Position numbers and translations under genes: made by a program. From Fidelibacterota bacterium (lineage in GTDB: Bacteria; Fidelibacterota; UBA2242): a stretch of 64,000 nucleotides of DNA. Below the pieces are notes generated by a model. That model saw only the letters and a list, made by a program, of their open reading frames with translations. It was not told where the DNA came from and did not search any database. The stretch covers positions 2,371-66,370 of the forward strand of contig JADHWC010000002.1 of NCBI GenBank assembly GCA_016783665.1. The letters are read 5' to 3'. Below, in pieces: positions 10,129 through 38,595 of this stretch; position 1 is the stretch's first letter, and the number at the start of each line of letters is the position of its first letter.

Positions 10129-10144
10129 TATTTTTAAAAAAAAT

Positions 10145-10306: not shown

Positions 10307-10399
10307 AAATTTCAAAGATCTCTACTTTCAATATACTTACCATAGACGTAATGGTCAAGGCATTTTAGTATAAATAGTTAAAATATTTCGGGAATGTAT

Positions 10400-16792: not shown

Positions 16793-16809
16793 ATTAGATA
16801 TAAGAATTT

Positions 16810-17183
16810 GAAGTTAGTCGGTAAGCCGAATTCTGTTTCCGGCAGCTGCCGGACGGCAGTCATTTATCTACATACAGCCTTACAACTGATGTTAAGCGAT
16901 CTACCCGAGAATTTAACGGAACGGGCAATTCCAATTCTCTGCTTGATCTTGCTCCAGGTGGGGTTTACCCTGCCCCCGACATTGCTGTCGGGGCGGTGCG
17001 CTCTTACTTTAATCCCGCTTAATTGCAGGACGCACCATTTCACCCTTGACCGCCAAAGGCGGACGGTATTGTTTCTGTGGCACTTTCCTTCCCGTTGCCG
17101 GGACTCCGTGTTACGAAGCACCCTGCCCTGCGGAGTTCGGACTTTCCTCCCCGATAAAAATTGGGGCGACTGCCTGACTAACT
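16810..17183 (-). ncRNA. rnpB: RNase P RNA, bacterial type A.
   Basis: The minus strand reads GAAGUUAGUCAGGCAGUCGCC...GGAAAGUCCG...ACAGAAA...AGGGUGAAAUGGUGCG...GUAAGAGCGCACC...GGAAACAGAAUUCGGCUUACCGACUAACUUC. P1 pairs the 5' and 3' ends. The universally conserved P4 and J11/12 motifs are present. Confidence 0.85.
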
Positions 17184-17984
17184 TCAGATAAATTCCTCCT
17201 CATTAATTGAACGGATTTCACTGGCTTGTTCGTCCCAGTACAGCATCCGTCCACAAAATTCACAACGTATCGGATTCGCTCCGGAGCGAATCTCTACAAC
17301 TTTTTGCGGTGGGACAATTGTGTGACAGCCCCCGCAAGAAACCTGAGCTGGAATATATTCAATATTACCCTTTTTATCTACTTTTTCTTCGAAAACTTGG
17401 CGAATGGGTACAATTGCTAAACCATTCCTGGCTTTGGATACACGCTCATATTCCCTTATATATCGTAGTGAAATAAATTTTACGACAGCTTCCCGGTTCT
17501 TCATTAGTTTTTCTTGAACATCGTTGGTTTTTTCGTTGGTTTTTTCCAACTGTTCACGCCGGAATTTTATTTCATTTAATTTATCCTTCAATGTCAGATC
17601 TTTACCTTTGATTGCTTCTTTGAGATTTTCCATCTCTTCATTTAGTTCGAGGATTTTATATTCTGCCGTGTCGATATTCTGGCGAACAGTTTCAATTTCA
17701 GATGTTAGCGCATCATACTCTTTATTTGATGTAACAAGGTATAGTTGATCCTGGTATCTTTTCAAATGTTCTTTGTTATCCTTGATCTGTCCCTCGAGGT
17801 CTTTTGTTTCCAGAATGATTTCCTTTTCGCGGCTGCGATCGTTTTCAAGCTCCCTTTCCAGGTTGGCAATATTTTTTTCAAGTGTTTCAACAATCTGAGG
17901 AAGATCACCTTTTAATTCGTCTATCTTTAGTAGCTCGTTATCAATCTTTTGTAGTTTTATAAGAAATTTCAAGTCTTTGAACAT
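17184..17984 (-). CDS. Coiled-coil protein with a C-terminal C4 zinc ribbon (COG1579-like).
   Basis: Long heptad-rich Glu/Lys/Leu region, then CGGCHTIVP...CEFCGRMLY. Confidence 0.65.
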   Translation of the reverse strand: MFKDLKFLIKLQKIDNELLKIDELKGDLPQIVETLEKNIANLERELENDRSREKEIILETKDLEGQIKDNKEHLKRYQDQLYLVTSNKEYDALTSEIETVRQNIDTAEYKILELNEEMENLKEAIKGKDLTLKDKLNEIKFRREQLEKTNEKTNDVQEKLMKNREAVVKFISLRYIREYERVSKARNGLAIVPIRQVFEEKVDKKGNIEYIPAQVSCGGCHTIVPPQKVVEIRSGANPIRCEFCGRMLYWDEQASEIRSINEEEFI

Positions 17985-18092
17985 TTATCCTCCGTTCTAT
18001 TCAAAAATGAAAATTGCACCTTCCTGGGTGCAATTTAAATCTTGATATATGGGTTGAGCTTTCTGTAATGCTTTCAAAACCTTACCTTTCTG

Positions 18093-18166
18093 TGGGCGAT
18101 ATCCGATTTGAACGGATGACCTTCCCGATGTGAACGGGACACTCTGACCAGCTGAGCTAATCGCCC
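18093..18166 (-). tRNA. tRNA-Val (anticodon CAC).
   Basis: The minus strand reads GGGCGAT TA GCTC AGCTGGTCA GAGT G TCCCG TTCACAT CGGGA AGGTC ATCCG TTCAAAT CGGAT ATCGCCC A. This gives a clean cloverleaf with a 7-bp acceptor stem, anticodon loop TTCACAT and T-loop TTCAAAT. CCA is not encoded. Confidence 0.8.
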
Positions 18167-18258: not shown

Positions 18259-19668
18259 CTATTTTTGTTTTCCCCTCTGGAAAATATTTTTCAGTATACT
18301 AAAAAGATAAATAATTACTGAGCACATTAAACCGATGAAAAACGGCTGAATGTCCCATGGAAATGAAGGATTTATCAATGTGCTTTGATATAAACCGGCA
18401 GCTAACCAACAACTTGTGCCGAAAAAAGAAGCAATCATTGACACGACAGTGTCGCGTTTCGGTATTTGAATACCCGGGATAAAAATAGAGATCAAGGGCA
18501 ATAATAAGCTGGGTATAAACAGGGTGCCCATTAGATACCAGATCTTCACGACTGATGGCACCAAAGATAATAACAACACTGAAAACAGAAGCGTAATAAG
18601 CAATCCAAACTGGGTTGCATGTGTGATGTTAACATTTTTTTTGATCCGCCAGATGATATCCCGCCCAAACGTAACAGCGGCAAGAAAGGAATTTGAATCC
18701 AGGGTTGACATGATGGTCGCCAGAAGGGAAATGAAAAACAGTCCGCTTAATAGTGGCGGTAGTATTGTTACACCAAGGAGAGGAAAAGCCATCAATCCTG
18801 GAACATCACTGAAAAGTGCGCGGGCATAAAGTCCGGCAACAGTAGTAAAAAAATCAAAAACTACCCAGAACAGAATTGAGATTAGAATTCCACGTTGTGC
18901 CACCGCTGGAGTACGGGCGGCGTAGCATCGTTGATAAAAACCGGGATCAACGAATGTCCATAATGCAATAAAGAACCAGACGACGATATACTGAGCGTTC
19001 TGCCCGCCACTGAATTGAAGATGACTTGCTGGAAGATTATCCTTTAAGAAAGAAATACCACCAAATTTTGTAAACAGAGTTATCACCAATACCGCGAATC
19101 CGGAAAACATCAGGATAAACTGGATAATGTCGGTTTTAACTATCGATTTAAATCCTCCGAAAAAGATATATACCGTAGAGAATAGAATACTGATGAAAAT
19201 GGCAAACCAGAAAGGTATTCCAAAAATCGAACTGAACAGGATGCCGAGCATAAGCAGATGTGATGCAGGTGATACCAGGAAAAAGATAAAAACACTTCCG
19301 ATCAGTCCGGCTGGTTTTCCATAATGTTGATACAGTTGATCGGGAATAGTGTAAAGGTTTGATTTGCGAACTTTTGGTGCGATAAAGACGGCAAAGAGAA
19401 CGGCAAATAAATAATAGGGTAATGCTTGCGTTACCCAATTCAAAAGACCGTAGAGGTAGGTAAATTCACCAATACCCAAAATCCCGCCATACCATGTCGA
19501 TACCAGCGTAGCCGTAAATGCGGGCAGGGAGAGCCGTCGTCCGGCTAATAGGAAATTATCATCATTTTTCCGTTGATTTTTAGAATACAGGAAACCGATA
19601 AGTAAAATTGAGATTAAATAAATCAGGATAAGAAGTTTATCAATAATTGCAATGTTAATAGAATTCAT
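18259..19668 (-). CDS. Sodium:solute symporter family transporter.
   Basis: About 13 hydrophobic helices in an SSF-like arrangement, 469 aa. Confidence 0.7.
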   Translation of the reverse strand: MNSINIAIIDKLLILIYLISILLIGFLYSKNQRKNDDNFLLAGRRLSLPAFTATLVSTWYGGILGIGEFTYLYGLLNWVTQALPYYLFAVLFAVFIAPKVRKSNLYTIPDQLYQHYGKPAGLIGSVFIFFLVSPASHLLMLGILFSSIFGIPFWFAIFISILFSTVYIFFGGFKSIVKTDIIQFILMFSGFAVLVITLFTKFGGISFLKDNLPASHLQFSGGQNAQYIVVWFFIALWTFVDPGFYQRCYAARTPAVAQRGILISILFWVVFDFFTTVAGLYARALFSDVPGLMAFPLLGVTILPPLLSGLFFISLLATIMSTLDSNSFLAAVTFGRDIIWRIKKNVNITHATQFGLLITLLFSVLLLSLVPSVVKIWYLMGTLFIPSLLLPLISIFIPGIQIPKRDTVVSMIASFFGTSCWLAAGLYQSTLINPSFPWDIQPFFIGLMCSVIIYLFSILKNIFQRGKQK

Positions 19669-20330
19669 GAAGAACTGAGCGGTTTAATGACGATCAGAGT
19701 GCCTTTGGTGAAAGATATCCGTACGTTGTCCTTCAATGCCTGGTTACTGATACCCCGTGACCCTTCAAATAGGTTTTCGTGGTTCAACGTCCATTTCAAT
19801 CCATTGGTCGTTACATTATATGCTCTCGGAAATCCGAATAATGAAATGATATTGCCGGAGGACACTTGAAATCCATAGCTGCCTGCGGACAGTACTAAAA
19901 TTTCCGAAGTTTGTGAGAAAAGACGAATAGTTGCTTTGCGTTTGAATTTTTTTATGATCTGCAATGTTGCAACACTATGGTCGTCCCGTTTACCCATAAA
20001 ACCTATTAAAACAATCTGTTTATATGAAAGCCGGATTGCTTCATGCAGGGCTTTTTCCACATCATTTTCCTGTTGGGATTCCGTCTTAATTATCCGGGTA
20101 TTTTTCTGAATAAAATAATTCAACGCTTCGTCTTTGATTGAATCCAAATCGCCAATTATTAAATCGGGAGTAATACCATGCCGGAAAGCATAATTCGCTC
20201 CGCCGTCGGCGCACATAATGAAATTTGCAGCCTGAAGAAGTTGATTACATAGTTTTTGATCAGGATAATCGCCATTTCCGAACAGGATACAGATGGGTTC
20301 TGTATATGATAATGGAAGTATAGAAACCAT
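19665..20330 (-). CDS. Thiamine pyrophosphokinase.
   Basis: CADGGANY and IIGDLDS motifs typical of TPK. 221 aa. Confidence 0.6.
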   Translation of the reverse strand: MVSILPLSYTEPICILFGNGDYPDQKLCNQLLQAANFIMCADGGANYAFRHGITPDLIIGDLDSIKDEALNYFIQKNTRIIKTESQQENDVEKALHEAIRLSYKQIVLIGFMGKRDDHSVATLQIIKKFKRKATIRLFSQTSEILVLSAGSYGFQVSSGNIISLFGFPRAYNVTTNGLKWTLNHENLFEGSRGISNQALKDNVRISFTKGTLIVIKPLSSS

Positions 20331-20350: not shown

Positions 20351-21271
20351 TTATGATAATTTTTCGTAAATCGGGATTTTATTTTTTTGCATGCACTTTA
20401 TGAACTTAGGAATATTGATTATGAAATTAAATTTTTCCATCTGCTGACCGACCTGACGCTGATACTCTTTGGATCGGAAATATTTAATTAAATATTTCTT
20501 AAGTGGCAGGATTAAATAATCGGTATCCCAGACTAACTCTTCGCCGGTAACATGATTGATTAGACAGTCAAAATGGGCTGCCCAGGCGATTGTATGAAAT
20601 TTGTATTTTGATGTTAAATCTCTGTTGATTGCCTGCAGAATTGCCTGGTTGCTGGGATTTGTAAAAATAAAGTCTTTTGTAAACATGAATGCAGTATGAT
20701 AATATCGGGGTTTATTAATCATTCCTTCCAGGTTCAAACGGCGTGTCAGAATGATCATGATCTGCAACATGCGATCACCGATTCCCAAACCTGGGTAAGA
20801 TTGTCCGGGAAGCTGTGGACGTCGTTCATCAAAATGCATTTTAGGGTTTTGGAGAAGCAGCCACTCAACTTGAAGCAAATTCGGTATTATGTCCGGAAAA
20901 TTATGCAAAATACCTTCTGTAAAACGCATCTGTCCCCATTTAAGTACCATTTCACAGATTGTGTTTTCATCTTCAGGCGTACCTGTATATACATATAAAC
21001 GATGAGTATGAGGATCATCAGTATCGATTTCTACATGTAAATCTGTCAAACCCAATCTCGCTAATGCTTCCGTTAGTCCAAATGCATCGATTACATTTTT
21101 CAATCCTTGTTTACTAAACACACCCATGAAGAAATTTGAACTCTGCTTTACCCGACCACCGGAAACAATGTTATCCAATGTGAGATCGTCAAAATCGGCG
21201 CCTGTCTGAATATCAGCTAAAGTTAATTTTTTAGCGATTTTTAAATACTGTTTGCGGTATCTATTATACAT
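20351..21271 (-). CDS. Hypothetical protein of 306 aa with no recognisable motif. Immediate neighbour of the NifS-SelD fusion.
   Basis: Clean ORF in the same orientation and closely spaced with flanking genes. No motif I can assign. Confidence 0.5.
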   Translation of the reverse strand: MYNRYRKQYLKIAKKLTLADIQTGADFDDLTLDNIVSGGRVKQSSNFFMGVFSKQGLKNVIDAFGLTEALARLGLTDLHVEIDTDDPHTHRLYVYTGTPEDENTICEMVLKWGQMRFTEGILHNFPDIIPNLLQVEWLLLQNPKMHFDERRPQLPGQSYPGLGIGDRMLQIMIILTRRLNLEGMINKPRYYHTAFMFTKDFIFTNPSNQAILQAINRDLTSKYKFHTIAWAAHFDCLINHVTGEELVWDTDYLILPLKKYLIKYFRSKEYQRQVGQQMEKFNFIINIPKFIKCMQKNKIPIYEKLS

Positions 21272-21305
21272 AGTTTAATTAAGTGTCAAAGCTAATCATG
21301 CTACG

Positions 21306-23504
21306 TTAAGGAACAATAAATATTTTATATTTTCCGGCTTTTTCGATTTTACCGATAACAGATGCGCTTGTTTTTCCGGATTCCTTTAGTCGTTTAACCA
21401 TCTCAGCGGCATTGGGTTCCGGCGTCGCAACCAATAATCCGCCTGAAGTCTGAGCGTCACAAAGTATTACCCTAAAAACGGAGCTGACTTTGTCATCCCA
21501 GTGGATGCGATCTTTCAGATAATTCATATTTGCGTCTGTGCCTCCGGGGATGACGTTTCTGCGAACCATTTCCACTGTGTTTGGAATGACCGGTACTTTC
21601 GAACTAATAATCCGGGCGGATATATCACCATCCATAAGCATCTCATAGAGGTGCCCTAATAGTCCGAATCCGGTAACATCGGTACAGGCGTGAACCGGAA
21701 ATTCTCTGATAATATCAGCGGCAGCGGCATTCAGCTCGCTCATAATATTGACGATAGCATTCCGGGCAGCGTCGTCCAGCAGACCCCTTTTCAATGCTGT
21801 CGATAAAATGCCGATCCCGACCGGTTTGGTAAGAATAAGCGCGTCACCGGGCTGCGATCCGACATTGCGCCAGATTGCGTCCGGATGAACTGTTCCGGTA
21901 ACGGCAAGACCGAACTTGGGCTCGTTGTCTTCGATGGTGTGACCACCCAGGATCGGGATTCTTGCCTTATGGGTAATATGTTGGGCGCCTTCAAGAATAC
22001 GCTCCAGTACTTTCATAGGGAGTCGCTTTTCAGGGAATGCCGCAATGTTTAATGCAAAAAGGGGTTTTCCGCCCATGGCGTAGATATCGCTGAGTGAATT
22101 TGCCGCGGCAATCCGTCCAAAATCATAAGGATCATCCACGATCGGTGTGAAAAAGTCTACGGTCGAAACCAGCGAAATTTCATCCGTTAAGCGAAAAACC
22201 GCCGCATCATCGGAGCTTTCAAAGCCGACCTGTGTGTATTCAGAAGGTATAGTCTGAATTTTTTTCAGAATTTCTTCCAGATGCTGTGGTCGGATCTTAC
22301 AGGCGCATCCTAATCCGTGAGTATATTGAGTGAGACGAATATCGGAGATATCGGTAAATGTGACTTCTCTCAGTATATTTTCAGTAAGGTTGCGGTAAGC
22401 TTCGGATATTTTTCTAACGGCAGCGCTGACATCCTGCGCTGTTGTGGTTCTGCCTACCGAAAAGCGGATGCTGCCCAGGATTCGTTCGTCACTAAGCCCC
22501 ATTGCTTTCAAAACATGGGATGGTTCCATGCTGTCGGCATGACAGGCGGCTCCGGCGGATGCGGCAATGTCCGGAAGATCGGATAAAAGTGTATTGGCGT
22601 CGATACCGGGGAAATAGCTGTTAATTGTATTGGGGAGTTTCTGTTCCGGATGACCATTTAGTTTGATTTCCGGGATTGCTTCTTTTAATTCGTTCCAGAA
22701 TTGATCGCCCCGAGATTTTTGTTCGGTAAGAATTGTTTTTTCATTTGAGTGAAAAACTTCCGCAGCGGTTCCTAATCCAACGATTTCCAGCACATTTTCA
22801 GTACCCGGTCGCAAGCCTCGCTCATGTCCGGCGCCATGAATGAGTGGTTGGATCTTAGTTCCGGTTTTAATATATAGAGAGCCGACTCCTTTGGGAGCAT
22901 TCATTTTATGACCGGCAACAGATAGTAAATCGACCTCTAATTCCTGAACATCCACATGGATTTTTCCCACTGCCTGAGCCGCATCGGTATGCATCAGGAT
23001 ATTCCGTTCGTGAGCTATTTGGGCAATTTCCCTGATCGGCTGAATAGTCCCAACTTCGTTATTCGCCAGCATGATAGTGATGAGAATCGTATCTGAGCGG
23101 ATGGCGTGAACCAGCGATTTGGTATCCACCAAACCATATTCATCAACCGGGAGATAGGTGACGCTATATCCATTATTCTCAAGAAATCGACACACTTCCA
23201 GGATTGCCGGATGTTCCACAGCGCTGGTGACGATATGTCCCGAATGATACAGGCTGGCGATGCCTTTGACCGCTATATTGTTCGATTCGCTGCCGCCACT
23301 GGTGAAGATGATCTCATCGGCGGAACAGCTCAGCAGTGCAGCCAATTGTTTCCGGGAATGCTCAATTGCTTTTTTACCTTCCTGACCATAATAGTGACTG
23401 CTGGAGGGATTCCCGTAGTGGTTTTTCAGAAAAGGCATCATGGCGTTAATGACTTCCGGGATCATCGGTGTGCTGGCGTTATGGTCTAAGTAGATTGGTT
23501 TCAT
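21306..23504 (-). CDS. selD: Fusion protein: NifS/IscS-like cysteine desulfurase (N-terminal) plus selenophosphate synthetase SelD (C-terminal).
   Basis: The N-terminal ~380 aa is a class V PLP fold (SGGSESNN, HK PLP-lysine region, SAAGAACHA). The C-terminal half starts with IRLTQYTHGLGCACKIRPQHLEEIL, matching the SelD N-terminus (E. coli [24 protein letters not shown]), then AIR-synthase-like domains. The catalytic position is Cys, not Sec. Confidence 0.8.
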   Translation of the reverse strand: MKPIYLDHNASTPMIPEVINAMMPFLKNHYGNPSSSHYYGQEGKKAIEHSRKQLAALLSCSADEIIFTSGGSESNNIAVKGIASLYHSGHIVTSAVEHPAILEVCRFLENNGYSVTYLPVDEYGLVDTKSLVHAIRSDTILITIMLANNEVGTIQPIREIAQIAHERNILMHTDAAQAVGKIHVDVQELEVDLLSVAGHKMNAPKGVGSLYIKTGTKIQPLIHGAGHERGLRPGTENVLEIVGLGTAAEVFHSNEKTILTEQKSRGDQFWNELKEAIPEIKLNGHPEQKLPNTINSYFPGIDANTLLSDLPDIAASAGAACHADSMEPSHVLKAMGLSDERILGSIRFSVGRTTTAQDVSAAVRKISEAYRNLTENILREVTFTDISDIRLTQYTHGLGCACKIRPQHLEEILKKIQTIPSEYTQVGFESSDDAAVFRLTDEISLVSTVDFFTPIVDDPYDFGRIAAANSLSDIYAMGGKPLFALNIAAFPEKRLPMKVLERILEGAQHITHKARIPILGGHTIEDNEPKFGLAVTGTVHPDAIWRNVGSQPGDALILTKPVGIGILSTALKRGLLDDAARNAIVNIMSELNAAAADIIREFPVHACTDVTGFGLLGHLYEMLMDGDISARIISSKVPVIPNTVEMVRRNVIPGGTDANMNYLKDRIHWDDKVSSVFRVILCDAQTSGGLLVATPEPNAAEMVKRLKESGKTSASVIGKIEKAGKYKIFIVP

Positions 23505-23623: not shown

Positions 23624-24805
23624 TTACAGGTCTGTTTCCAGCGCATTTTCATAGTGTATCAGATTCAGGGGAATATCAGGGTATTTATCTGCAAAATAAT
23701 GGTATTTATAAGGATAAAATTGTTCTTGGGAAAATTTTGTTTCATAGGCTTTCTGATTTTGAATGATAAAATCTACCTCGTGTTTATTTTGAGTTCGCCA
23801 GTATTTAATATCCATTTCATCATATTTGTCTAGTAATCTACGAAATATGTAATTTTCAAATAGATTACCCCTGTCTTCTCTAAAAAAAAGGGCGTTGAAA
23901 TTATGTAAAAAATGATTTCTTAAACCGAGGTCGTTAAAATAGACTTTCGGTGATTTTCTCAGCTCTTTACTCAACTTACGGTAAAATGGCTTTATCAGAC
24001 TAATGTGAAAAGATTTCTGCATTAGTTCAGTATAGGCATTAATCGTAAGATGATTCATGCTGAAATCACTCGCTATATTATTATAACTGACGATGCCGCC
24101 GACTCTTTCGGCATATATTTGAAGTATAGTCAAATACGCATTTGGATATTTTAGATTAGATTCAAGGGCGTCTTTCTTCACATAAGAGTTCGCAATTTCC
24201 GCTAATATATGTTTTTTCTCTTCAATATCTGGTTCCAAAATGACTTCAGGATATCCGCCGAAAATGATATATTCCTGTAAGAGAGTGTATATTTCATCTC
24301 TGAAGATTGGTGGAATTTTTTTGTTTATGAAAGGCGTTAATTCTGTTCTATCTCTAAAAATAAGCATTTCTTCAAAACTTAAGGTCGGTAGTTTGAACAA
24401 TCGTTTTCTGCCAGCCAGAGAGTCCGTAAATTTTTTATCTATATAAAAACTTGATGAACCACTGACAATAAATTTAATTTTTTCATGGTATTTGTCGTAA
24501 TGATATTTTAAAAAATTAGAGGGAAAGTCAAGATATTGAATCTCATCAATAAAAATAATCGTTTGTCTGGTACGATCAATAGGCGGAATTACCAGAAACA
24601 ACTTAGCCGGATGTTCATTAAGTATTTTTAAAATATTAGGATCCTCAAGAGTAAGAAAGAAAACCTGATTTCGATCCTTTTTCAATTCTTTCATTAATTG
24701 TTGCATAAGCGTAGTTTTTCCGGTTTGCCTGGCTCCAACAATAAGGCTAATTTGTTTTTTTTTGAGATGGTTTTTTAATTTATTAAATAAAAGTCGCTTT
24801 TTCAT
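23624..24805 (-). CDS. AAA+ ATPase with a DUF4143-type C-terminal domain.
   Basis: P-loop GARQTGKTT. This architecture is common in Bacteroidota. Confidence 0.7.
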   Translation of the reverse strand: MKKRLLFNKLKNHLKKKQISLIVGARQTGKTTLMQQLMKELKKDRNQVFFLTLEDPNILKILNEHPAKLFLVIPPIDRTRQTIIFIDEIQYLDFPSNFLKYHYDKYHEKIKFIVSGSSSFYIDKKFTDSLAGRKRLFKLPTLSFEEMLIFRDRTELTPFINKKIPPIFRDEIYTLLQEYIIFGGYPEVILEPDIEEKKHILAEIANSYVKKDALESNLKYPNAYLTILQIYAERVGGIVSYNNIASDFSMNHLTINAYTELMQKSFHISLIKPFYRKLSKELRKSPKVYFNDLGLRNHFLHNFNALFFREDRGNLFENYIFRRLLDKYDEMDIKYWRTQNKHEVDFIIQNQKAYETKFSQEQFYPYKYHYFADKYPDIPLNLIHYENALETDL

Positions 24806-25114: not shown

Positions 25115-26068
25115 TTAGATAGAATCGAATAACAAACTGAAATCAACGCTCGTAACGGAATGAGTCAAGGCGCCTATTGAAATAACATCCACACCGCTTT
25201 CGGCATAATCTCGTATGGTTTCAATAGATATATTTCCCGATGCTTCGAAAAGGATATGATTGTATAGTTTTTTTGCTTTGGATTCAGCGATCAGTGCGGG
25301 AATTTGCTCCGGCGCAAAATGATCAAACATGATCACAAAAGGGAATGGAGCCGTGATGTTCTTCAAATAGCCCAGCATTTCGCGGTATTCATCCGTATTT
25401 GTCACTTCTATTTCAATAAAGCGCAGATAGGGATAAGATGAGATCATTTCCGTGACCGCCAGTTTTAGACTGTCGGGATTTTTCGACTTTCGCAGAATCG
25501 CCAGGTGGTTTTCCTTCAGCATTGCCGCATCGTGAAGTCCCAGCCTATGAGTCAGTCCGCCGCCGCATTGAATCGCGCGCTTGTCCAGCAATCCCCACAG
25601 AGTTTTGCGGGTGCCGACGACGAATGTATCCGTCTCCGAAATCCGCTCCACGTATGACCTTGTCGCAGTCGCTATTCCACTCAGCCGCTGAAGAATATTA
25701 AGAATTGTTCGCTCGACGGTAATAATCTCTGTCGCCTTGCCTTCAATGTGTAACAGAACATCACCGGTTTCGATGACGTCTCCGTTTTTGAAAGACGAAG
25801 TGGCGGTTATTTTTTTCCGGGATAAAAAGAATATGGTTTCATCAAGTCCGGCGATGACTGCGGAGGATTTGGCGATTATCCCGGCTTTCAGAGTTGTTTC
25901 ATAAGATTGTTCAGGTGTCAGTGACGCATCGCCTTTGCCGATATCTTCATCCATCATTCGGGAGAAAAAATCGCCGACATAATCCCGGTAAGATACATTA
26001 CCGAGGCTTAACTCTATATCGGCGTCAAAAGCGTGGCGAATAACCTGGTTTCTATCCGACTGTTCCAT
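25115..26068 (-). CDS. nadC: Nicotinate-nucleotide pyrophosphorylase (quinolinate phosphoribosyltransferase) family.
   Basis: TRKTLWGL, QCGGGLTHRLGLHDAAMLKENH and the C-terminal ISIGALTHS motifs of the type II PRTase QPRT fold. Confidence 0.7.
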   Translation of the reverse strand: MEQSDRNQVIRHAFDADIELSLGNVSYRDYVGDFFSRMMDEDIGKGDASLTPEQSYETTLKAGIIAKSSAVIAGLDETIFFLSRKKITATSSFKNGDVIETGDVLLHIEGKATEIITVERTILNILQRLSGIATATRSYVERISETDTFVVGTRKTLWGLLDKRAIQCGGGLTHRLGLHDAAMLKENHLAILRKSKNPDSLKLAVTEMISSYPYLRFIEIEVTNTDEYREMLGYLKNITAPFPFVIMFDHFAPEQIPALIAESKAKKLYNHILFEASGNISIETIRDYAESGVDVISIGALTHSVTSVDFSLLFDSI

Positions 26069-26883: not shown

Positions 26884-27294
26884 TTATTGGCGGTTTTCGG
26901 GCAATTTACAGCACATTGGCAGCTTTGCATAAGCATCAAGGTTGGCAGGTGTCTCGTTAGCCTGATATCCCAGATCGGAAATGGCTTTTTCAATCTGTTT
27001 CAGATTGAGTTGAGCCGGATTGTAGTTTATATGTCCCATTTTGTCTTCGATATCCACATTGACAGATACAATACCGTCCATTTTTCCCAGACCAGTTTCA
27101 ATAGTGCTCTTGCACATGCCGCACTGAACGGTGGGCAGCTTTACCATGGCATGGGTTTGATTTTCACCATGTCCCATCATCATCTGGGGCTGAGATTTGC
27201 CAGTGTCATCCGTTTTTTCTTTGCCGCCGCATGCGACGATTCCAACGATGAGAAAAGCGATCAACGCAAAACCGATGATTCTTTTGGTGTTCAT
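26884..27294 (-). CDS. Heavy-metal-associated (HMA) domain lipoprotein.
   Basis: Lipobox (LIVGIVACGG). HMA-like CGMCKST metal-binding motif. Confidence 0.6.
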   Translation of the reverse strand: MNTKRIIGFALIAFLIVGIVACGGKEKTDDTGKSQPQMMMGHGENQTHAMVKLPTVQCGMCKSTIETGLGKMDGIVSVNVDIEDKMGHINYNPAQLNLKQIEKAISDLGYQANETPANLDAYAKLPMCCKLPENRQ

Positions 27295-30200
27295 GATAAC
27301 TCCTTGTTTTGATTTTTAAATTGTCTTTCCTTAATAATTGTATACAGAACCGGCACGACAAATGTTGTGATGACGCCGATGAACATTCCGCCAAAGGAGG
27401 GGATTGCCATGGGTACCATGATGTCGGAGCCTCGGCCGGTGGAGGTGAGAACCGGCAGCAAGGCCAAAACCGTTGTGCTGATGGTCATCATTGCCGGGCG
27501 GATTCTTCGCGAACCGGCCGCGACCGTGGCCTGGCGAATCTCGCGAATGGTCTCAGGTTTATGACGCGCAAAACTCTGTTCGAGATAGGTGCTGATGATG
27601 ACGCCGTCATCGCTGGCGATGCCGAACAGTGCCAGAAAACCGACCCAGACCGCCACACTGAGATTGATCGGGTGGACCTGGAACATCTCCCGGAGGTTGA
27701 CCCCGGCGAAACTGAAGTTGAGAAACCAGTCCTGACTGTAGAACCAGAGCATCAGAAAACCGCCCGCCCAGGAGACGATGATCCCGGAAAAAACGATTAA
27801 GGTCACCGGCACTTTTTTGAACTGGAAATAGAGGATCAGAAAAATAACTGCCAGAGACAGTGGCAGAATTACGCGCAGTCGCTTGACGGCCCGAATCTGG
27901 TTCTCATAACTCCCGGCGAAGCGGTAACTAACTCCGGCCGGAATGACCAGCTGACCGGATTCGATCTTCGTTTTTAGGTAGCGCTGGGCCTGTTCGACCA
28001 CGTCCACCTCCGCCCAGTCATCCTGTTTATCAAACAGTACATAGCCGATCAGGAAAGTGTCTTCGCTTTTGATGACCTGGGGACCGCGGATATAATTGAT
28101 GGTGGCTAATTGTCCCAGCGGAATCTGGGTGCCATTCGGTGCGGCGACGAGAATATCTTCCAGGGATTCGATATTGTCCCGCAGTTCCCGCATATAGCGC
28201 ACCCGAACCGGATAGCGTTCACGACCTTCAACTGTTGTGGTAATCTGCTTACCACCGATGGCGACTTCGATGACATCCTGAACCTGACGCAACGGAATCT
28301 GGTAGCGCGCAATCGCCTTGCGGTCGATCTCGATTTCCAGGTAAGGTTTTCCGACGATGCGATCCGCAAAAACAGCGGACGCTTTCACCGCAGGAACCTC
28401 TTTTAGATAATGCTCCAGCTGCATGCCGACTTTTTCGATCGTTTCCAGATCGGGACCTTTGACCTTAATCCCCATCGGCGCGCGCATACCGCTCTGCAGC
28501 ATGACAATCCTGGCGGAAATCGGTTGCAGTTTCGGCGCGGAAGTTGTTCCCGGAATCCGGGCGACTTTGACCAGTTCATCCCAGATATCCTGGTTGCTGC
28601 GAATATGGTCACGCCACTGGCGGAACGGTTTGCCCCGTTTGGACGGGATCAGGTTTCCGGCGTTATCCCGTTGAAAACTGCCGTCGGGATTCACGGCAAA
28701 TTTCAGTCGCTTTCCGTTCTTGTCGGTGATATATTCGGATTTGTAATTGATTACTGTTTCGATCATGGAAATCGGCGCCGGGTCCAGCGGCGTGTCCGCG
28801 CGTCCCAGTTTTCCGACGACCTGTTCCACCTCGGGAACCGAATAGAGCGCTTTGTCCAGCTTGGCTAAAACGTCCAGCGCCTCTTCCATTCCGGCGTGGG
28901 GCATGGTGGTAGGCATATAGAGAAACGAGCCTTCATCCAGTGATGGCATAAACTCTTTGCCCATACCCGGGAAGCGGTGATTCCAGTTGGAATAGACAAC
29001 AGTCTTTTTTATAAAATCCGGCATGAATCCAAATATCTTTCCGAAGCCGATCCAACTCATCATACCCAGGATGACGATCGATGTGGGCACACTCAGCATT
29101 GTTTTTTTATGGTCCAGCGCCCAGGTGAGCAGACGCGGGTAGATTTTTGTGTAACCGCTCAAAAGCCCCATGACGGTCCCGATGACCATGGCGGCGAAAA
29201 GGAAATTCAGGATGAATCCTTTGTCGTAACCGAGCGGCGACCATGTGGACGCCAGGATGCTGAGCACTAACGCCACGATGGTCCAGTTGATGATTTTCGG
29301 CAGGCGGGTCTGAATTTTTGGCGGCAGATAATGGGATGTTATTCTGAAAATACCGACGAAAGCCACAATGGTTCCAAGCCACCACTTGAAGGTAAATGCC
29401 AGGATCAGCCCAAAAATAATCAAACCTACACTGGTAAAATGCCGAAACCCGTGTGATCGCTTTTTTCCCCGGTAGAGCAGATGAGCGACCGGCGGCAGGA
29501 TAGTCAATGCCACGATAATTGAGGCAATCAGCGCCAGACTTTTGGTGTAAGCCAGGGGTTTGAAGAGTTTTCCTTCGGCTGCCTGCATGGTGAACACCGG
29601 CAGGAAAGAGACAATGGTGGTCGAAACGGCGGTCAGCACTGCGCCGCCGACTTCAGAAACAGCCCGGAAGAGGACATCCCGCCTGTTTTCATTTTCATCG
29701 GCTTCGTCGAGATGTTTTAACATATTTTCCGAAACCACGATGCCCATGTCCACAATCGTACCGATGGCGATTGCAATTCCAGAGAGCGCCACCACGTTGG
29801 CGTCCACGTGAAAGAGCTTCATACCGATAAACACCATCAAAACTGTGATTGGCAACAAACCACTGATCAGAAGGGATGTCTTGAGATGCATGACCATTAA
29901 AATGATGACAATAATCGTGATCAGGATTTCATCTCTCAGAGCATGGTTCAATGTGCCGAGGGTCTCGTAGATCAGACCGGTTCGATCGTAAAAGGGAACG
30001 ATCGTTACCTGGGACTTGGTTCCATCCGGCAAGATCTTAGACGGCAAGCCGGGACTGATTTCGATGATTTTCTTTTTGAGCCGGTTAATCGTCGCCAGCG
30101 GATTTTCACCATAGCGAACGACCACGACACCACCTACGACTTCGGCGCCTTCCTTGTCGAGTGCGCCGCGCCGCACCGCCGGACCGAGAACGACGTTGGC

Positions 30201-31067
30201 CACATCCTTGATATAGATCGGGACGTTGTCGGTGGTTTTTACCACTGTGAACTCGATATCTTGCAGGGTTTTGATGAAACCGATTCCGCGGATGACATAC
30301 TCCACCCGGTTGACTTCAATTGTCCGGGCCCCGACATCGATATTAGCATTTCGAACGGCGTTGAAAATATTCTGGAGTTTGACACCATGAGCCCGTATCG
30401 CGGCGGGATCGACATCGATCTGGTATTCCTTGACGTAGCCGCCGATCGAAGCGACTTCCGAGACGCCGTCGGTGGATTGCACAGCATAGCGCACATACCA
30501 ATCCTGAATGGAGCGCAACTCCTGTAAGTCCCAGCCGCCGGTCGGGTTACCGTCCGGGTCACGTCCTTCCAGCGTGTACCAGAACACCTGCCCCAAAGCT
30601 GTGGCATCAGGTCCCAGGATCGAACTGACACCTTCAGGAAGGGTGCCTGGCGGTAGGGAGTTCAGTTTTTCCAGAACCCGGCTGCGGCTCCAGTAAAATT
30701 CAGCTTTTTCTTTAAAGATGATATAGATTGTAGAAAATCCGAACATGGAGTAAGATCGCACAGTTTTGACTTCCGGAATGCCGAGCAATGCCACGGTCAA
30801 CGGATAACTGATCTGATCTTCCACATCCTGAGGCGAGCGGCCCATCCATTTGGTGAACACGATCTGCTGGTTTTCGCCGATATCGGGAATGGCATCGACG
30901 GGCACCGGGCTGCGATCAAGCCCGGGAATCTGCCAGTCAAAGGGCGCCACTAAAATTCCCCAGGTAATCAATCCGGCAAGGATCAGGAAGACGATGAGTT
31001 TATTGTCTATAGTATAGGCAATGATTTTGTCAAGTAGTGATAAGCGTTCCTTATTCATGGCTGTCAT
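27291..31067 (-). CDS. cusA: CusA/CzcA family heavy-metal efflux RND transporter.
   Basis: 1258 aa, 12-TM RND topology. Highly conserved HME-RND C-terminus. Confidence 0.9.
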   Translation of the reverse strand: MTAMNKERLSLLDKIIAYTIDNKLIVFLILAGLITWGILVAPFDWQIPGLDRSPVPVDAIPDIGENQQIVFTKWMGRSPQDVEDQISYPLTVALLGIPEVKTVRSYSMFGFSTIYIIFKEKAEFYWSRSRVLEKLNSLPPGTLPEGVSSILGPDATALGQVFWYTLEGRDPDGNPTGGWDLQELRSIQDWYVRYAVQSTDGVSEVASIGGYVKEYQIDVDPAAIRAHGVKLQNIFNAVRNANIDVGARTIEVNRVEYVIRGIGFIKTLQDIEFTVVKTTDNVPIYIKDVANVVLGPAVRRGALDKEGAEVVGGVVVVRYGENPLATINRLKKKIIEISPGLPSKILPDGTKSQVTIVPFYDRTGLIYETLGTLNHALRDEILITIIVIILMVMHLKTSLLISGLLPITVLMVFIGMKLFHVDANVVALSGIAIAIGTIVDMGIVVSENMLKHLDEADENENRRDVLFRAVSEVGGAVLTAVSTTIVSFLPVFTMQAAEGKLFKPLAYTKSLALIASIIVALTILPPVAHLLYRGKKRSHGFRHFTSVGLIIFGLILAFTFKWWLGTIVAFVGIFRITSHYLPPKIQTRLPKIINWTIVALVLSILASTWSPLGYDKGFILNFLFAAMVIGTVMGLLSGYTKIYPRLLTWALDHKKTMLSVPTSIVILGMMSWIGFGKIFGFMPDFIKKTVVYSNWNHRFPGMGKEFMPSLDEGSFLYMPTTMPHAGMEEALDVLAKLDKALYSVPEVEQVVGKLGRADTPLDPAPISMIETVINYKSEYITDKNGKRLKFAVNPDGSFQRDNAGNLIPSKRGKPFRQWRDHIRSNQDIWDELVKVARIPGTTSAPKLQPISARIVMLQSGMRAPMGIKVKGPDLETIEKVGMQLEHYLKEVPAVKASAVFADRIVGKPYLEIEIDRKAIARYQIPLRQVQDVIEVAIGGKQITTTVEGRERYPVRVRYMRELRDNIESLEDILVAAPNGTQIPLGQLATINYIRGPQVIKSEDTFLIGYVLFDKQDDWAEVDVVEQAQRYLKTKIESGQLVIPAGVSYRFAGSYENQIRAVKRLRVILPLSLAVIFLILYFQFKKVPVTLIVFSGIIVSWAGGFLMLWFYSQDWFLNFSFAGVNLREMFQVHPINLSVAVWVGFLALFGIASDDGVIISTYLEQSFARHKPETIREIRQATVAAGSRRIRPAMMTISTTVLALLPVLTSTGRGSDIMVPMAIPSFGGMFIGVITTFVVPVLYTIIKERQFKNQNKELS

Positions 31068-33102
31068 GCTCCATCAATGAACCCGTTTTTGAAGGGAAGG
31101 TGCCTTTCACTTCACCGCAGCTGAGCATTTTTGCACCGAAAAACGGATTGTTAATCTGCTTATCTTTAGCAAGCCAATACGCTCCTTTATTATTAAAGGC
31201 CATCGGGCAGTAACTTTCGTAAAATGTGTCCTCCCCGCTGTGACCGAACTGCTTTTCCATATTCAATACGGCAATGCTGATGTCTTCAAAGGTCTTGCGA
31301 ACGTCCTCATTGGATTGCCAGTGTTTCGCGTGCTTAGTTTGATCCGTGATCTGTTTGCTGATTTGGAGAAATTGATGATGGGCGTCGTCCGCCAATTTAA
31401 AATTGTTGACATTAAAATTATCGACCAGTTTTCCCAGTTTAGTCAGATACGTTTTTGACTGTTTAAAATTGTCTTCAGCCAGTGCAGTCTGGGCGTTGAG
31501 ATAACTATCATAAAGTGGTGACAGGGCTTCCCGGAATTCCACCGGAACATCCACAACCAGTTTCACCATTTCCCGTATTGTGGATTTTGGGACGGCACCG
31601 CTGTGTCCTTCATGACCGGTGTTGCTGACGCCGCCTTCCGGGCTCATCATACTGGGTTTGGCGGCGATTTGCATAGCACTGTCGATCTTGAAATTACCAT
31701 TGGTGACGACTTCCTCACCTTCGGAAAGTCCTTCTTCCACGATGTAAAAATCGCCCGACCGGGCACTGATGCGGATTTCCCGGCTTTCGTAAGTAGGTTC
31801 TTCAGTATTCGGAACTTTGACATAAACGAGTGTGCGCTTGCCGGTTTTCAATACGGCACTGGCAGGCACAAGCAGCGGCAGTTGTTTGCTCGACGGTTGC
31901 CGGACGATGCCCAGTTCCTCGGCTTTGACCAGAGGCATACCGCAGATGTCACAGGTGCCGGGATGATTCTTGACGATTTCCGGATGCATGGGTGATATCC
32001 ATTTGCCGGCGAGTTGTGGATTAATGGAGTTTCCTTCGGCATCAAGACTGGCATGTACTGTTCCACGCAAAAACATACCGGGTTTCAGTTTTCCATCGGG
32101 ATTAGGCAGATTGATACGTACCGATACCGTCCTGGTTTTCGGATCAAGGATTGGGTTGATGAAAGAAATTTTACCTTTAAACATTTCACCCGGCAGGGCT
32201 TCAATTTCAAAGTTGACGGTCTGGGCATATCGCAACCAGAATAGATCGGATTCATAGGCATCCAGCATTACCCATATCCGGTTTAAATCTGCAATTATGT
32301 AAATCTCCATACCGGTATTAACATACATACCTTCAACGGCATGTTTATGGGTGACAATACCCGATAACGGGCTGTAAATGGTTATAATCTCCGACGCCTC
32401 GCGCTTCTTTTCAATTGCTTGAATCTGGATATCGCCAAGGCCCAGCAATCGTAGTTTTTCTCTGGCGGCTTCAAGATTATTACGACTGTTTGATATTACT
32501 GTTGATGACTGATTGGTTTGACGTTCAATTGCCAGTTTAGCCTGTAAAAGTTCTTCCTGGGCAGAAAACAGTTCGGGACTGTAAATATCAACAAGATGTT
32601 CACCTTTTTTTACCGGCATTCCGGCATAATCGGCATAGAGCCTTTCCAGCCGTCCGGACATCCAGGCGGTGATAGTCTTAACGCGAGTTTCATCATAGGT
32701 TATTTTCCCTGATAAGCGTAATTCTTTATGTGCAGGACTCCGTTTTACAGCGCTCGTCTGGATCTCAGCTAGTTGCCTGGCGGTTTCCGACATCTGTAGT
32801 TGACGGGGATGATCAACATCAGCATTTGTTTTAAGAGGGATTAAATCCATAAAACAGATCGGGCATTTTCCGGGTTCCGGTAATTTAATCTGGGGATGCA
32901 TCGAACAGGTCCACCACTCAGCTTCATTGGTATGAGTATGTTCGGAAGCTGTACTTGCGGCGTATTCTATCGGTTTATGTTTGAAATTATACCCTGCCAG
33001 AAATGCAAGAAATATTATGATCGAGATTATAACAATTTTAGATGATGGTTTTGATATATAAGATTTCATGATGTTCGGTAAAATTTTAATAAACTTTTCC
33101 AT
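31051..33102 (-). CDS. cusB: RND efflux periplasmic adaptor (CusB-like) with an N-terminal Cys/His metal-binding domain and a C-terminal extension.
   Basis: WTCSMHPQ...CPICFMDL near the N-terminus, and a second Cys/His/Met-rich motif (ISPMHPEIVKNHPGTCDICGMPL). Membrane-fusion beta-barrel and lipoyl core. Confidence 0.8.
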   Translation of the reverse strand: MEKFIKILPNIMKSYISKPSSKIVIISIIIFLAFLAGYNFKHKPIEYAASTASEHTHTNEAEWWTCSMHPQIKLPEPGKCPICFMDLIPLKTNADVDHPRQLQMSETARQLAEIQTSAVKRSPAHKELRLSGKITYDETRVKTITAWMSGRLERLYADYAGMPVKKGEHLVDIYSPELFSAQEELLQAKLAIERQTNQSSTVISNSRNNLEAAREKLRLLGLGDIQIQAIEKKREASEIITIYSPLSGIVTHKHAVEGMYVNTGMEIYIIADLNRIWVMLDAYESDLFWLRYAQTVNFEIEALPGEMFKGKISFINPILDPKTRTVSVRINLPNPDGKLKPGMFLRGTVHASLDAEGNSINPQLAGKWISPMHPEIVKNHPGTCDICGMPLVKAEELGIVRQPSSKQLPLLVPASAVLKTGKRTLVYVKVPNTEEPTYESREIRISARSGDFYIVEEGLSEGEEVVTNGNFKIDSAMQIAAKPSMMSPEGGVSNTGHEGHSGAVPKSTIREMVKLVVDVPVEFREALSPLYDSYLNAQTALAEDNFKQSKTYLTKLGKLVDNFNVNNFKLADDAHHQFLQISKQITDQTKHAKHWQSNEDVRKTFEDISIAVLNMEKQFGHSGEDTFYESYCPMAFNNKGAYWLAKDKQINNPFFGAKMLSCGEVKGTFPSKTGSLMEHDSHE

Positions 33103-34925: not shown

Positions 34926-35306
34926 CTAATTCTTCTTTTGTTTTTGGTGATAATCCTTTATCGCAGCTTCCAGGGCTTCTTCAGCAAGGTTTGAACAATG
35001 CATTTTTACGGGCGGCAAGCCATCCAAAGCCTCGGCAACGACTTTGTTGGTAATCTGCCGGGCTTCATCGATTGTTTTACCTATTACGAGCTCAGTCGCC
35101 ATCGAACTGGTGGCAATAGCGGCGCCACACCCGAAAGTTTTAAATTTGGCGTCGACAATTACGTTATCTTTTACTTTAATATACATCTCCATGACATCAC
35201 CGCACATTGGATTTCCCACATGTCCGACTCCATCGGGATTTTCAATTTCACCCACATTGCGCGGATTTCTGAAATGATCCATCACTTTTTCGCTATACGG
35301 TTCCAT
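34926..35306 (-). CDS. iscU: Fe-S cluster assembly scaffold IscU/NifU.
   Basis: GNPMCGD, GCGAAIA and KMHCS cysteine motifs. Confidence 0.85.
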   Translation of the reverse strand: MEPYSEKVMDHFRNPRNVGEIENPDGVGHVGNPMCGDVMEMYIKVKDNVIVDAKFKTFGCGAAIATSSMATELVIGKTIDEARQITNKVVAEALDGLPPVKMHCSNLAEEALEAAIKDYHQKQKKN

Positions 35307-35318
35307 TATTTCAGTTCC

Positions 35319-36479
35319 TTATTTTTTATAAAGTGGCGACATGGCGCGCAATTTTTTAACTATTCCCGGTAGCGCTTCGACAACATAATCCAGCTCGTCT
35401 TTAGTTGTTTGTTTTCCTAATGAGAACCGCACAGAACCGTGGGCAAATTCGTGAGTCAGCCCAATCGAGAGCAGTACGTGACTGGGTTCCAGACTGGATG
35501 AGCTGCAGGCAGAACCGGTTGAGGCGGCGATTCTTTCTATGTCCAGATTCAGCAGGATTGATTCGCCTTCGATGCCCTCAAAGGAAATATTGACGTTATT
35601 GGGTAATCGGAGGGAGGGGTGTCCATTCAGACGGGCGTCATCGATATTATCCAAAATTGCGCGAATGAATTCATCACGTAATTTGGTTTGCCGGATAGCT
35701 TCACTTTTCATGACTTTTCCGGCGATCTCAACCGCTTTTCCCAACCCAATAATGCCGGGCACGTTTTCGGTAGAAGCCCGTCGCCGCCGCTCCTGGTCGC
35801 CGCCGTGGATCAGAGGTGTGATTTTAATTCCTTTTCGAATATATAATGCGCCGACGCCTTTTGGGCCGTAAAATTTATGACCGGAAATACTGAGTATGTC
35901 AACATTCAGGTTATCGACATTTACGGGTATATGACCGAAGGTCTGGACAGCGTCGGTATGGAATGTGATGCCGTTTTTTCGGGCGATTTCACCAATCTGC
36001 CTTATCGGTTGAATCGTGCCGATTTCATTATTGGCATGCATGACCGTAATTAAAATTGTCTGCGGAGTGATTGCTTTTTCCAATTCGTCCAATTTCACAA
36101 TTCCGTCCTGATCGATCGGTAGATAAGTGACTGTAAATCCATTCTTTTCCAAAAACTTACATGTATATAAGACTGCATGATGTTCGATTGAAGATGTGAT
36201 GATATGATTGCCTTTTTGTTGTTTGGCGAGGGCGACGCCTTTGATGGCAAAATTGTCGCATTCGCTGCCGCTGCTGGTAAAGACGATTTCTTTTGGATTC
36301 GCACCCAATGCGTTTGCGACTATTTCACGGGCATTTTCGATGGCGTTTTTTGAGACACGGCTCATTGAATAAATGCTTGAGGGGTTTCCGTAGTGTTCGT
36401 GAAAATAGGGAAGCATGGCTTCCAATACTTCCGGATCAGTTGCCGTCGTAGCGGCATGATCGAGGTAAATCATTTTCAT
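35319..36479 (-). CDS. iscS: Cysteine desulfurase IscS/NifS.
   Basis: Class V PLP enzyme with SGHKFYGPKG and the SACSS active-site Cys loop. Confidence 0.9.
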   Translation of the reverse strand: MKMIYLDHAATTATDPEVLEAMLPYFHEHYGNPSSIYSMSRVSKNAIENAREIVANALGANPKEIVFTSSGSECDNFAIKGVALAKQQKGNHIITSSIEHHAVLYTCKFLEKNGFTVTYLPIDQDGIVKLDELEKAITPQTILITVMHANNEIGTIQPIRQIGEIARKNGITFHTDAVQTFGHIPVNVDNLNVDILSISGHKFYGPKGVGALYIRKGIKITPLIHGGDQERRRRASTENVPGIIGLGKAVEIAGKVMKSEAIRQTKLRDEFIRAILDNIDDARLNGHPSLRLPNNVNISFEGIEGESILLNLDIERIAASTGSACSSSSLEPSHVLLSIGLTHEFAHGSVRFSLGKQTTKDELDYVVEALPGIVKKLRAMSPLYKK

Positions 36480-36913
36480 TGAAGTTCCTCATAGTGGGTT
36501 TTATTGTAATATTTATCGACCAAATCCTGGAGCGTAAAACCGGCTAAGGTTGTTGAAATTGTTTCCTCCAGTTTCGTCCAGATATCTCTGGTGATACAAA
36601 ATCTCGACCGGTTGCATACCTCCGGGGATTCAACGCATTCAGATGGGTATAGATGCCCTTCGAGAACACGGATAATATCTTTCAGAGTGATATCCGTTGG
36701 CGCTTTGGCTAATGAGTATCCACCTCGCGCTCCCCTTGTGGAGTAGACTAAGCGGGCAGTTTTTAAAGGTGGCACGAGATGCTCAAGGTACCGCACGGAA
36801 AGATCTTCTTTTTCAGCGATTTCTTTCAGTAACATGGGACCGTTGCCATAGTTCAGCGCCAGCTGAAACATCAGCCGCGCTCCATATTTTCCTTTTGTCG
36901 AAATTCGTAACAT
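36476..36913 (-). CDS. iscR: Rrf2-family transcriptional regulator (IscR-like).
   Basis: wHTH N-terminus (GKYGARLMFQLA...). Cys residues C(x5)C in the C-terminal region. Overlaps the iscS start. Confidence 0.8.
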   Translation of the reverse strand: MLRISTKGKYGARLMFQLALNYGNGPMLLKEIAEKEDLSVRYLEHLVPPLKTARLVYSTRGARGGYSLAKAPTDITLKDIIRVLEGHLYPSECVESPEVCNRSRFCITRDIWTKLEETISTTLAGFTLQDLVDKYYNKTHYEELQ

Positions 36914-37763: not shown

Positions 37764-37772
37764 GTGTCTATA

Positions 37773-38324: not shown

Positions 38325-38595
38325 TAAAGTGTATTATTAAAAATTTTGAAGAGATAAAGAGACCTGATTATTTAAAAACCAATTATATAGCATTGAGTAT
38401 GCGAATTGAAAATTCAGTTTAGATATTGCAATCCCAAACATTAAATAGAATGACATAAAAAACAAGAATACCCAGAAGGATATATAATCCTGTTCTTAAC
38501 ACCCTGTGTTATTCTGAAAGATTTTTTTCTTCTTCTATGATGACTTGCCATGTATAATCCCTGTTTTTATTAACCATACCCTACTGATAATCTAA

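Follow-up and report, generated by a model that had tools for sequence, protein, structure and literature searches.

A 64,000-nucleotide stretch of the genome of a Fidelibacterota bacterium (GenBank assembly GCA_016783665.1, contig JADHWC010000002.1, positions 2,371 to 66,370; below referred to as the window) carries on its minus strand a gene for a protein of 732 amino acids (aa) that joins a NifS-like lyase to the selenide, water dikinase SelD (21306..23504), and beside it a gene for a 306-aa protein (20351..21271, minus strand), here termed X306. The best overall explanation, in which we have moderate confidence, is that the fusion is an intact protein of a known type and that X306 is not a selenium-specific partner but most likely a GNAT-like acyltransferase or an acyl-CoA sensor. 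X306 belongs to a wide, unannotated family, and an AF2 model of its open reading frame (ORF) together with Foldseek searches points, weakly yet consistently, to a GNAT-like fold.

The initial annotation had read the 732-aa protein as a complete NifS-like lyase followed by a complete SelD, and Pfam, NCBIfam and motif evidence agree on this. Pfam places an Aminotran_5 domain at residues 4-360 (E = 2e-76), AIRS at 432-539 and AIRS_C at 551-729. The SelD domain (residues 387-732; 21309..22346, minus strand) exceeds the equivalog cutoffs of TIGR00476 (389.1 bits, cutoff 125, matched at residues 390-697) and NF002098 (373.5 bits, cutoff 299). Its N-terminus RLTQYTHGLGCACK aligns with E. coli SelD (PDB 3u0o, E = 3e-80) in the Cys17 region, as had been proposed: Cys17 corresponds to C400, Cys19 to C402 and Lys20 to K403. 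The active-site loop GLGCACK of the fusion (22296..22316, minus strand) stands opposite GAGCGCK of 3u0o and is of the Cys type, not the selenocysteine (Sec) type. The motifs SDDAAV, TVDFF, NSLSDIYAMGG and CTDVTGFG are kept at the positions of E. coli D51, D68, N87/D91 and D227, residues that we take to bind ATP and metal. Loss of the SelD ATP-binding residues had been named as a possible argument against the assignment; it does not apply, as the Asp motifs are all conserved in the alignment to 3u0o.

The NifS-like half is a class-V pyridoxal phosphate (PLP) domain (PF00266, residues 4-360; 22425..23495, minus strand) with a GHK motif containing K200 (22899-22913) and an AACHAD motif containing C321 (22533-22550). 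From the IscS/NifS motifs, without a residue-level tool alignment, we take K200 to be the PLP lysine and C321 to be the catalytic cysteine. Judged from its sequence, the fusion is a complete protein with both active sites intact. The lyase half scores below every equivalog cutoff (NifS TIGR03402, 457 bits, cutoff 530.75; IscS, 394 bits, cutoff 643; SclA, 125 bits, cutoff 525). About 12 kb from the fusion the window contains an Rrf2 regulator–NifS–NifU operon for Fe-S cluster assembly (34926..36913, minus strand), whose stand-alone NifS reaches 598 bits on TIGR03402 (cutoff 530.75) and whose NifU reaches 216 bits on TIGR03419, the regulator being a member of the Rrf2 superfamily. The fused and the stand-alone NifS are 48% identical. 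Because of this canonical operon and the below-cutoff score, the fused domain is an extra, diverged paralog, and as the separate operon covers Fe-S assembly, the fused copy is probably dedicated to selenium mobilisation. The 64 kb hold three class-V PLP desulfurase-type genes: the fused NifS, the operon NifS and a divergent SufS-like gene for 491 aa (45755-47230, minus strand), which is below all equivalog cutoffs.

Conservation of the fusion in relatives, which the initial annotation had proposed to check, was found: full-length fusions of 729-745 aa make up 119 of the 120 best homolog clusters. Named sources are Marinimicrobia/Neomarinimicrobiota, Calditrichaeota, KSB1 and Zixibacteria, and the database labels are "selenide, water dikinase SelD" at NCBI and "cysteine desulfurase NifS/selenium donor protein" at JGI. 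The fusion type is already described, and it is widespread in FCB-group phyla. A NifS–SelD fusion was reported in Geobacter sp. FRC-32 (Zhang et al., 2008, PMC2398784), and in the 2008 survey of the marine GOS data no such fusion was found (PMC2398784). A later survey listed two bacterial fusions in addition to those of Acanthamoeba castellanii and Naegleria gruberi (Mariotti et al., 2015, PMC4561486). In that work all genomes with extended or fused SelD genes contained selenoproteins and Sec machinery, and the fusions were judged functionally normal (PMC4561486). The present gene adds Marinimicrobia and other FCB-group phyla to a type known since 2008, which is of little consequence, and pipelines already call it SelD. 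What is useful is that such fusions turn out to be frequent, with more than 100 clusters against one or two bacterial cases in early surveys, so that a good biochemical model exists for the direct passage of selenium from lyase to SelD.

Such channelling, suggested in the initial annotation, is the accepted reading of these fusions (PMC2398784, PMC4561486). The PLP domain (K200, C321) would remove selenium from free selenocysteine, or handle a persulfide/perselenide, on its mobile Cys loop and would pass the element on to the SelD part, whose flexible N-terminal loop bears C400, C402 and K403. The SelD part would then make selenophosphate from ATP, and the direct hand-over within one protein would avoid free selenide.

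The description of the 306-aa protein as lacking a recognisable family was borne out, as X306 has no Pfam, NCBIfam or PDB sequence match. When 66 relatives were compared with Pfam at E ≤ 1, only scattered single matches were obtained and no GNAT model was among them. A word-index search returned 53 relatives, every named one from Marinimicrobia, and an exhaustive profile search returned 1,109 representative clusters (counted at 50% identity) at E ≤ 1e-3, 574 of them at E ≤ 1e-30. At least 358 GTDB species genomes carry relatives; the search for GTDB loci was built on one alignment and profile (A1). The taxa include Calditrichota, KSB1, Lentisphaeria, Fidelibacterota, Myxococcota, Bradymonadales and the cultured Lujinxingia vulgaris TMQ2, and X306 is therefore not private to one lineage. 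The genomes nearest to the window, based on X306, are the metagenome-assembled genome (MAG) KR13_S3.mb.119 (97% identity) and Neomarinimicrobiota CSMAG_1237 (90%). In the former (JAHIOG01) two contigs span the X306 region (L014 and L019), with 97% and 92% aa identity to the window, which indicates that two strains were binned together.

The AF2 model of X306 has a mean pLDDT of 88.9 and a pTM of 0.83. Nearly all of the top 50 Foldseek matches in the PDB have a GNAT fold; the best is the acetyl-CoA-binding C-terminal domain of M. tuberculosis ICL2 (E = 3e-4), and others are the toxins TacT, AtaT and GmvT, Hat1, Ard1, KKT23 and malonyl-CoA decarboxylase. Against BFVD, the named top matches are proteins with an N-acetyltransferase domain (E = 4e-3 to 5e-2). 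A SAP-like N-terminus (Ku70 SAP domain, E = 0.31) was not significant and was rejected. Profile A2 gave no signal by hhalign against the GNAT encoded in the window, a comparison that is uninformative because the template was a single sequence.

The most conserved segment of the family is the core motif VEWLLLQNP…LPGQSYPGLGIG (20777-20869), which lies between a long strand (residues 131-141) and a helix (165-178). It contains the invariant Q157-x3-G161-x-G163, preceded by an insertion of about 15 residues. In GNAT proteins motif A (Q/R-x-x-G-x-G/A) forms the loop between strand 4 and helix 3 that holds the pyrophosphate of acyl-CoA. Across 89 sequences of the X306 family, D86, E107, E136, W137, Q141, Q157, G161, G163, H192, W248 and Y270 are invariant or nearly so. 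No Cys is conserved family-wide in the same 89 sequences, which argues against a persulfide/perselenide relay as the chemistry of the family.

Gene neighbourhoods were compared in a set of 80 GTDB loci and additional metagenome loci; these were searched with the window proteins and the neighbours were clustered, 88 loci being counted. An HDAC-family deacetylase gene lies directly upstream of X306 and on the same strand in 13 loci, mostly of Calditrichota, and EF-P lies downstream in 12. The order asparaginase – HDAC-type deacetylase – X306 – EF-P is kept in 10-13 Calditrichota species (L040-L062). HDAC and X306 also occur as a single fused protein (P0110, P0127, P0182). Among 15 long X306 relatives that were scanned, eight are fused to USP domains (in two cases marginally, with E about 4e-5, at the Pfam cutoff), three to HDAC and one to an AMP-binding acyl-CoA synthetase, while three have no recognised extra domain. 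Together with a GNAT-like core, this partner set reproduces the known parts list of bacterial lysine acetylation.

Based on the GNAT-like core, the HDAC pairing and fusion, and the acyl-CoA synthetase and USP fusions, we tentatively read X306 as an acyl-CoA-dependent acyltransferase, a model-based assignment that is plausible but leans slightly to the doubtful side. The Q157-x3-G161-x-G163 loop would bind the pyrophosphate of acyl-CoA, and the acyl group would be transferred to a protein lysine or another amine via the invariant E107, E136, H192 and Y270. In this X306 would resemble acetyltransferases of the AcuA/Pat type, which are paired with AcuC-type deacetylases and have acyl-CoA synthetases and USPs as targets. 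We are more hesitant about the wider claim, possible as it is, that X306 founds an unannotated family of GNAT-like acyltransferases that pair with HDAC-type deacetylases, USP domains and acyl-CoA synthetases.

The same fold could instead serve a non-catalytic sensor of acyl-CoA (or of a nucleotide) that controls fused or linked partners in the manner of the ICL2 C-terminus. The best Foldseek matches are indeed structures of the acetyl-CoA-binding regulatory domain of ICL2 (6ee1/6edz/9obo), X306 is often fused to ligand-binding USP domains, and its gene contexts are highly varied. However, the invariance of the polar residues E107, E136, Q141, Q157, H192 and Y270 across members that are about 25% identical suggests catalysis, and the pairing with a deacetylase is more easily read as that of a writer with an eraser. 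We regard a sensor as unlikely and keep to the acyltransferase.

A selenium role for X306 had been suggested from its position. Transcription runs from high to low coordinates on the minus strand, which puts X306 downstream of the fusion; the initial annotation was right in calling the two genes co-directional but had placed X306 upstream. A gap of 34 nt separates them in the window. The order in the clade with SelD is nadC – nifS/selD – X306 – kinase – symporter – CT398-like, and in one locus of this clade (L004) the genes of the unit overlap by 4 nt. In 14-15 loci NifS–SelD is the gene immediately before X306; their X306 proteins share at least 43% identity with that of the window and all come from one Neomarinimicrobiota clade, and SelD adjoins X306 in every clade locus with upstream sequence (15 loci). 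Next to the invariant Glu107 a cysteine, Cys106 (20945-20959, minus strand), is found in 15 of 15 SelD-adjacent orthologs and on two truncated contigs of the same clade, but in none of 72 others. Tight linkage, the kept adjacency, the clade-specific Cys106 and the lack of a selenium consumer gene in the 64 kb would all suit a partner in selenium utilisation or in sulfur/selenium transfer that consumes or relays the product of the fusion, giving an orphan SelD a new selenium trait.

The wider family speaks against this. Of 58 GTDB loci whose upstream flank reaches 2.5 kb or more, 10 have SelD beside X306; SelD is absent from the remaining 48, whose X306 proteins are 27-37% identical, within a flank of up to 10 kb; nor is it near the loci holding the AMP-binding and USP fusions. 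Conversely, a Zixibacteria chromosome and a Calditrichaeota contig have unrelated genes next to the fusion and no X306 there. The family has no conserved Cys, its partners (HDAC, USP, acyl-CoA synthetase, kinase and symporter) are not selenium-related, it shows no likeness to SenA/SenB, YqeB/YqeC or SelU, and the surveyed genomes with fused SelD have Sec machinery (PMC4561486). That X306 is a partner in selenium utilisation or sulfur/selenium transfer in this clade is thus highly improbable. We give equally little credence to a more far-reaching form of the idea, in which the fusion is an orphan in this clade and X306, having gained Cys106 and being co-transcribed, was recruited as an enzyme using selenium or selenophosphate. 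If true, this would define a new selenium-utilisation trait, the fourth or fifth; the enzyme might act on a cofactor that the symporter brings in and the kinase pyrophosphorylates.

The kinase and the symporter point to another context. X306 is followed after 20 nt by a gene for thiamine diphosphokinase (19665..20330, minus strand; TIGR01378, 168 bits, cutoff 76.4), which overlaps by 4 nt with a sodium:solute symporter gene (SSF, PanF-like; 18259..19668, minus strand; Pfam SSF, NCBIfam sss/PanF below cutoff). The symporter probably provides the uptake step in a pair for vitamin salvage, its substrate being deduced. The kinase at position +1 and the symporter at +2 of X306 are found in 23 of the 88 loci, and X306–kinase–symporter occurs without SelD in L003, L006, L007, L065, L068, L079, L086 and L089, the stop codon of one gene often overlapping the start codon of the next. 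The simplest history is that X306–kinase–symporter is the older arrangement and that nadC and nifS-selD were later placed in front of it in one Neomarinimicrobiota clade.

X306 might accordingly take part in the salvage of thiamine (vitamin B1), modifying or regulating the kinase or the transporter or acting on a thiamine precursor. The consecutive same-strand arrangement spans the SelD clade as well as distant Marinimicrobia and FCB lineages (about 30% identity), and a CYTH (triphosphatase-type) gene comes next in L003 and L006. Yet the kinase and symporter are not nearby in about 65 of the 88 loci, a search for a thiamine pyrophosphate (TPP) riboswitch in the window and upstream of nine X306–kinase–symporter loci gave none, the fusion partners elsewhere are unrelated to thiamine, and the substrate of the symporter is only deduced. 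Overall this role seems doubtful, with a low probability much like that of a sensor. In L003 and L006 the full order is X306-TPK-SSF-CYTH-PhoU_div-PHO4, and PHO4 and PhoU_div (DUF47) genes lie convergent at X306 loci of Bradymonadales/Myxococcota (L055, L067, L069-L075); phosphate-related genes thus recur beside X306 relatives in two unrelated lineages.

Several points weigh against our explanation of an intact, known-type fusion next to a putative GNAT-like acyltransferase. The Foldseek fits are poor (TM-scores of 0.2-0.3 when normalised by the query and 0.4-0.5 when normalised by the target, rmsd 4-12 Å), and profiles A1 and A2 matched no chain among the PDB sequences, GNAT included. The invariant Q157-x3-G161-x-G163 exceeds the canonical Q/RxxGxG/A by one residue. 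No HDAC gene is present in this window, and for the acyl transfer, itself a prediction, no candidate acceptor was singled out. The four genes of the SelD clade are probably co-transcribed, as they are tightly packed and a scan of 17.9-26.4 kb placed no terminator-like site in the gaps between fusion, X306, kinase and symporter; in this region promoter- and terminator-like sites are no commoner than in shuffled sequence. Cys106 is specific to the SelD-linked clade, a pattern that is confounded with shared ancestry. Finally, we know of no NifS-SelD fusion for which lyase-to-SelD channelling has been demonstrated.

The initial annotation had called the fusion an orphan, which is an interpretation rather than something observed, because no selA, selB, ybbB/selU or yqeB/yqeC and no TGA-containing gene were visible in the window. 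Pfam, ARAGORN, tblastn and a TGA scan gave the same result. None of these selenium genes was found by Pfam in nearly all non-overlapping ORFs of at least 150 aa and several shorter ones. ARAGORN detected tRNA-Val and tRNA-Met only in the 64-kb window, and no tRNA-Sec. E. coli SelA, SelB and SelU had no tblastn match at E ≤ 1e-3 in the window or in 93 fetched loci. Scanning the window for TGA read-through revealed no split gene, although the scan would miss a Sec codon lying 40 codons or fewer from the end of an ORF. The sole long candidate with an in-frame TGA (37062-38333, minus strand) was rejected, as it consists of two adjacent genes (GNAT and SGNH lipase).

The selD gene is commonly unlinked to its consumers (selAB or selU). 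For this reason, and because only 64 kb were covered, the lack of selenium genes in the window says little about the genome as a whole. A truly orphan NifS-SelD, feeding some undescribed use of selenium without X306, would be in line with this lack in the 64 kb and with our literature search, which found no paper on Sec or selenouridine (SeU) traits or on selenoproteins in Marinimicrobia/Marinisomatota. Nevertheless, all fused-SelD genomes examined earlier had Sec machinery (PMC4561486), MAGs of KSB1, a group that bears the same fusion, are reported to carry selA, selB and selD (PMC9012183), and the SelD domain is above the equivalog cutoffs. We consider a true orphan very unlikely; the consumers of selenophosphate are probably encoded elsewhere in the genome.

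As a widespread hypothetical family that Pfam and NCBIfam do not cover, X306 is of modest interest in its own right. The genes fused to it and those beside it suggest a part in the acylation of proteins or small molecules. Defining it would fill a recurrent blank in genomes of the FCB group and of Myxococcota/Bradymonadota, and bacterial acylation systems could gain a new writer.

Upstream of the fusion, nadC (quinolinate phosphoribosyltransferase; 25115..26068, minus strand) is the conserved neighbour in the SelD-linked clade. It directly abuts the fusion in the relatives L001 and L004, where the AAA_14/DUF4143 ATPase gene that separates the two in the window (23624..24805, minus strand; Pfam) is not at that position. 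We regard this gene as context outside the system; it looks to have been inserted recently into an otherwise conserved gene order. L015 and L022 also have an extra gap between nadC and the fusion, similar to the window.

Further along the minus strand lies a heavy-metal efflux cluster (26884-34438) with an HMA-domain protein, a 1258-aa AcrB/CusA-like RND pump, a CusB-like adaptor (HlyD_D23 and HMBD) and an OEP outer-membrane factor. A GC content of 0.51 at 28-32 kb, compared with about 0.41 on either side, suggests that the cluster was acquired horizontally. Three RNA genes lie just downstream of the operon. RNase P RNA (class A, 264 bits) was located at 16806-17185 (minus strand), and the ORFs 16808-17191 (plus) and 16864-17121 (minus) are considered spurious because they overlap its gene. 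The 6S RNA (65 bits) is at 10141-10309 (minus) and tRNA-Val at 18092-18166 (minus). The window is also dense in signalling genes (58713-60872, plus; 63029-63976, minus; 44326-45087, minus; 39881-41896, plus), comprising a CHASE2–adenylate/guanylate cyclase, a GAF–GGDEF diguanylate cyclase, a cNMP-binding–FHA protein and a GAF-domain protein.

Compared with known systems, the fusion has the same architecture as those of Geobacter FRC-32, Acanthamoeba and Naegleria, in which a class-V NifS-like domain precedes SelD (PMC2398784, PMC4561486). It shares with them the predicted coupling of selenium delivery to selenophosphate synthesis and a CxC/CxU-K loop at the same position. Unlike the Geobacter FRC-32 fusion, which is of the Sec type, the fusion of the window, from a Neomarinimicrobiota MAG, is of the Cys type (C400). 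In E. coli, SelD is served by the NifS-like donors IscS, CsdA and SufS/CsdB (Lacourciere et al., 2000, cited in PMC4561486). The catalytic residues of SelD, its fold family and the logic of delivery from lyase to SelD are the same there; however, lyase and SelD are separate proteins in E. coli, while the window encodes them as a single polypeptide and has a housekeeping NifS besides.

The idea of X306 as a selenium partner has precedents in traits that were found through uncharacterised genes beside selD: YqeB/YqeC, the SelD-neighbour trait of selenium-dependent molybdenum hydroxylases (PMC2276186), and SenA/SenB/SenC, the selenoneine pathway (bioRxiv 10.1101/2022.04.13.486033). In contrast to these, X306 matches neither set, and its linkage to selD is restricted to one clade and does not recur across lineages.

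Bacterial GNAT acetyltransferases and their HDAC-type erasers include AcuA and AcuC of B. subtilis, which act on AcsA, further Pat/YfiQ, and MtPat of mycobacteria, which acts on USP and Acs. With its predicted GNAT-like fold X306 would resemble the acetyltransferases among these, and the same three types of partner occur with it, an HDAC deacetylase, an acyl-CoA synthetase and USP, fused or adjoining. It differs from them in having no sequence match to GNAT models, in its size (about 300 aa, with additional helical parts at both termini), and in its longer strand-to-helix loop (Q-x3-G-x-G). The C-terminal domain of ICL2 (PDB 6ee1, 6edz) is the best structural match of the X306 model (E = 3e-4, probability 1.0) and is a GNAT-like scaffold. 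In ICL2 the domain has a regulatory role and is attached to a lyase; X306 occurs as a stand-alone protein or in fusion with USP, HDAC or Acs domains. The two have 8-12% sequence identity, and the TM-score is low.

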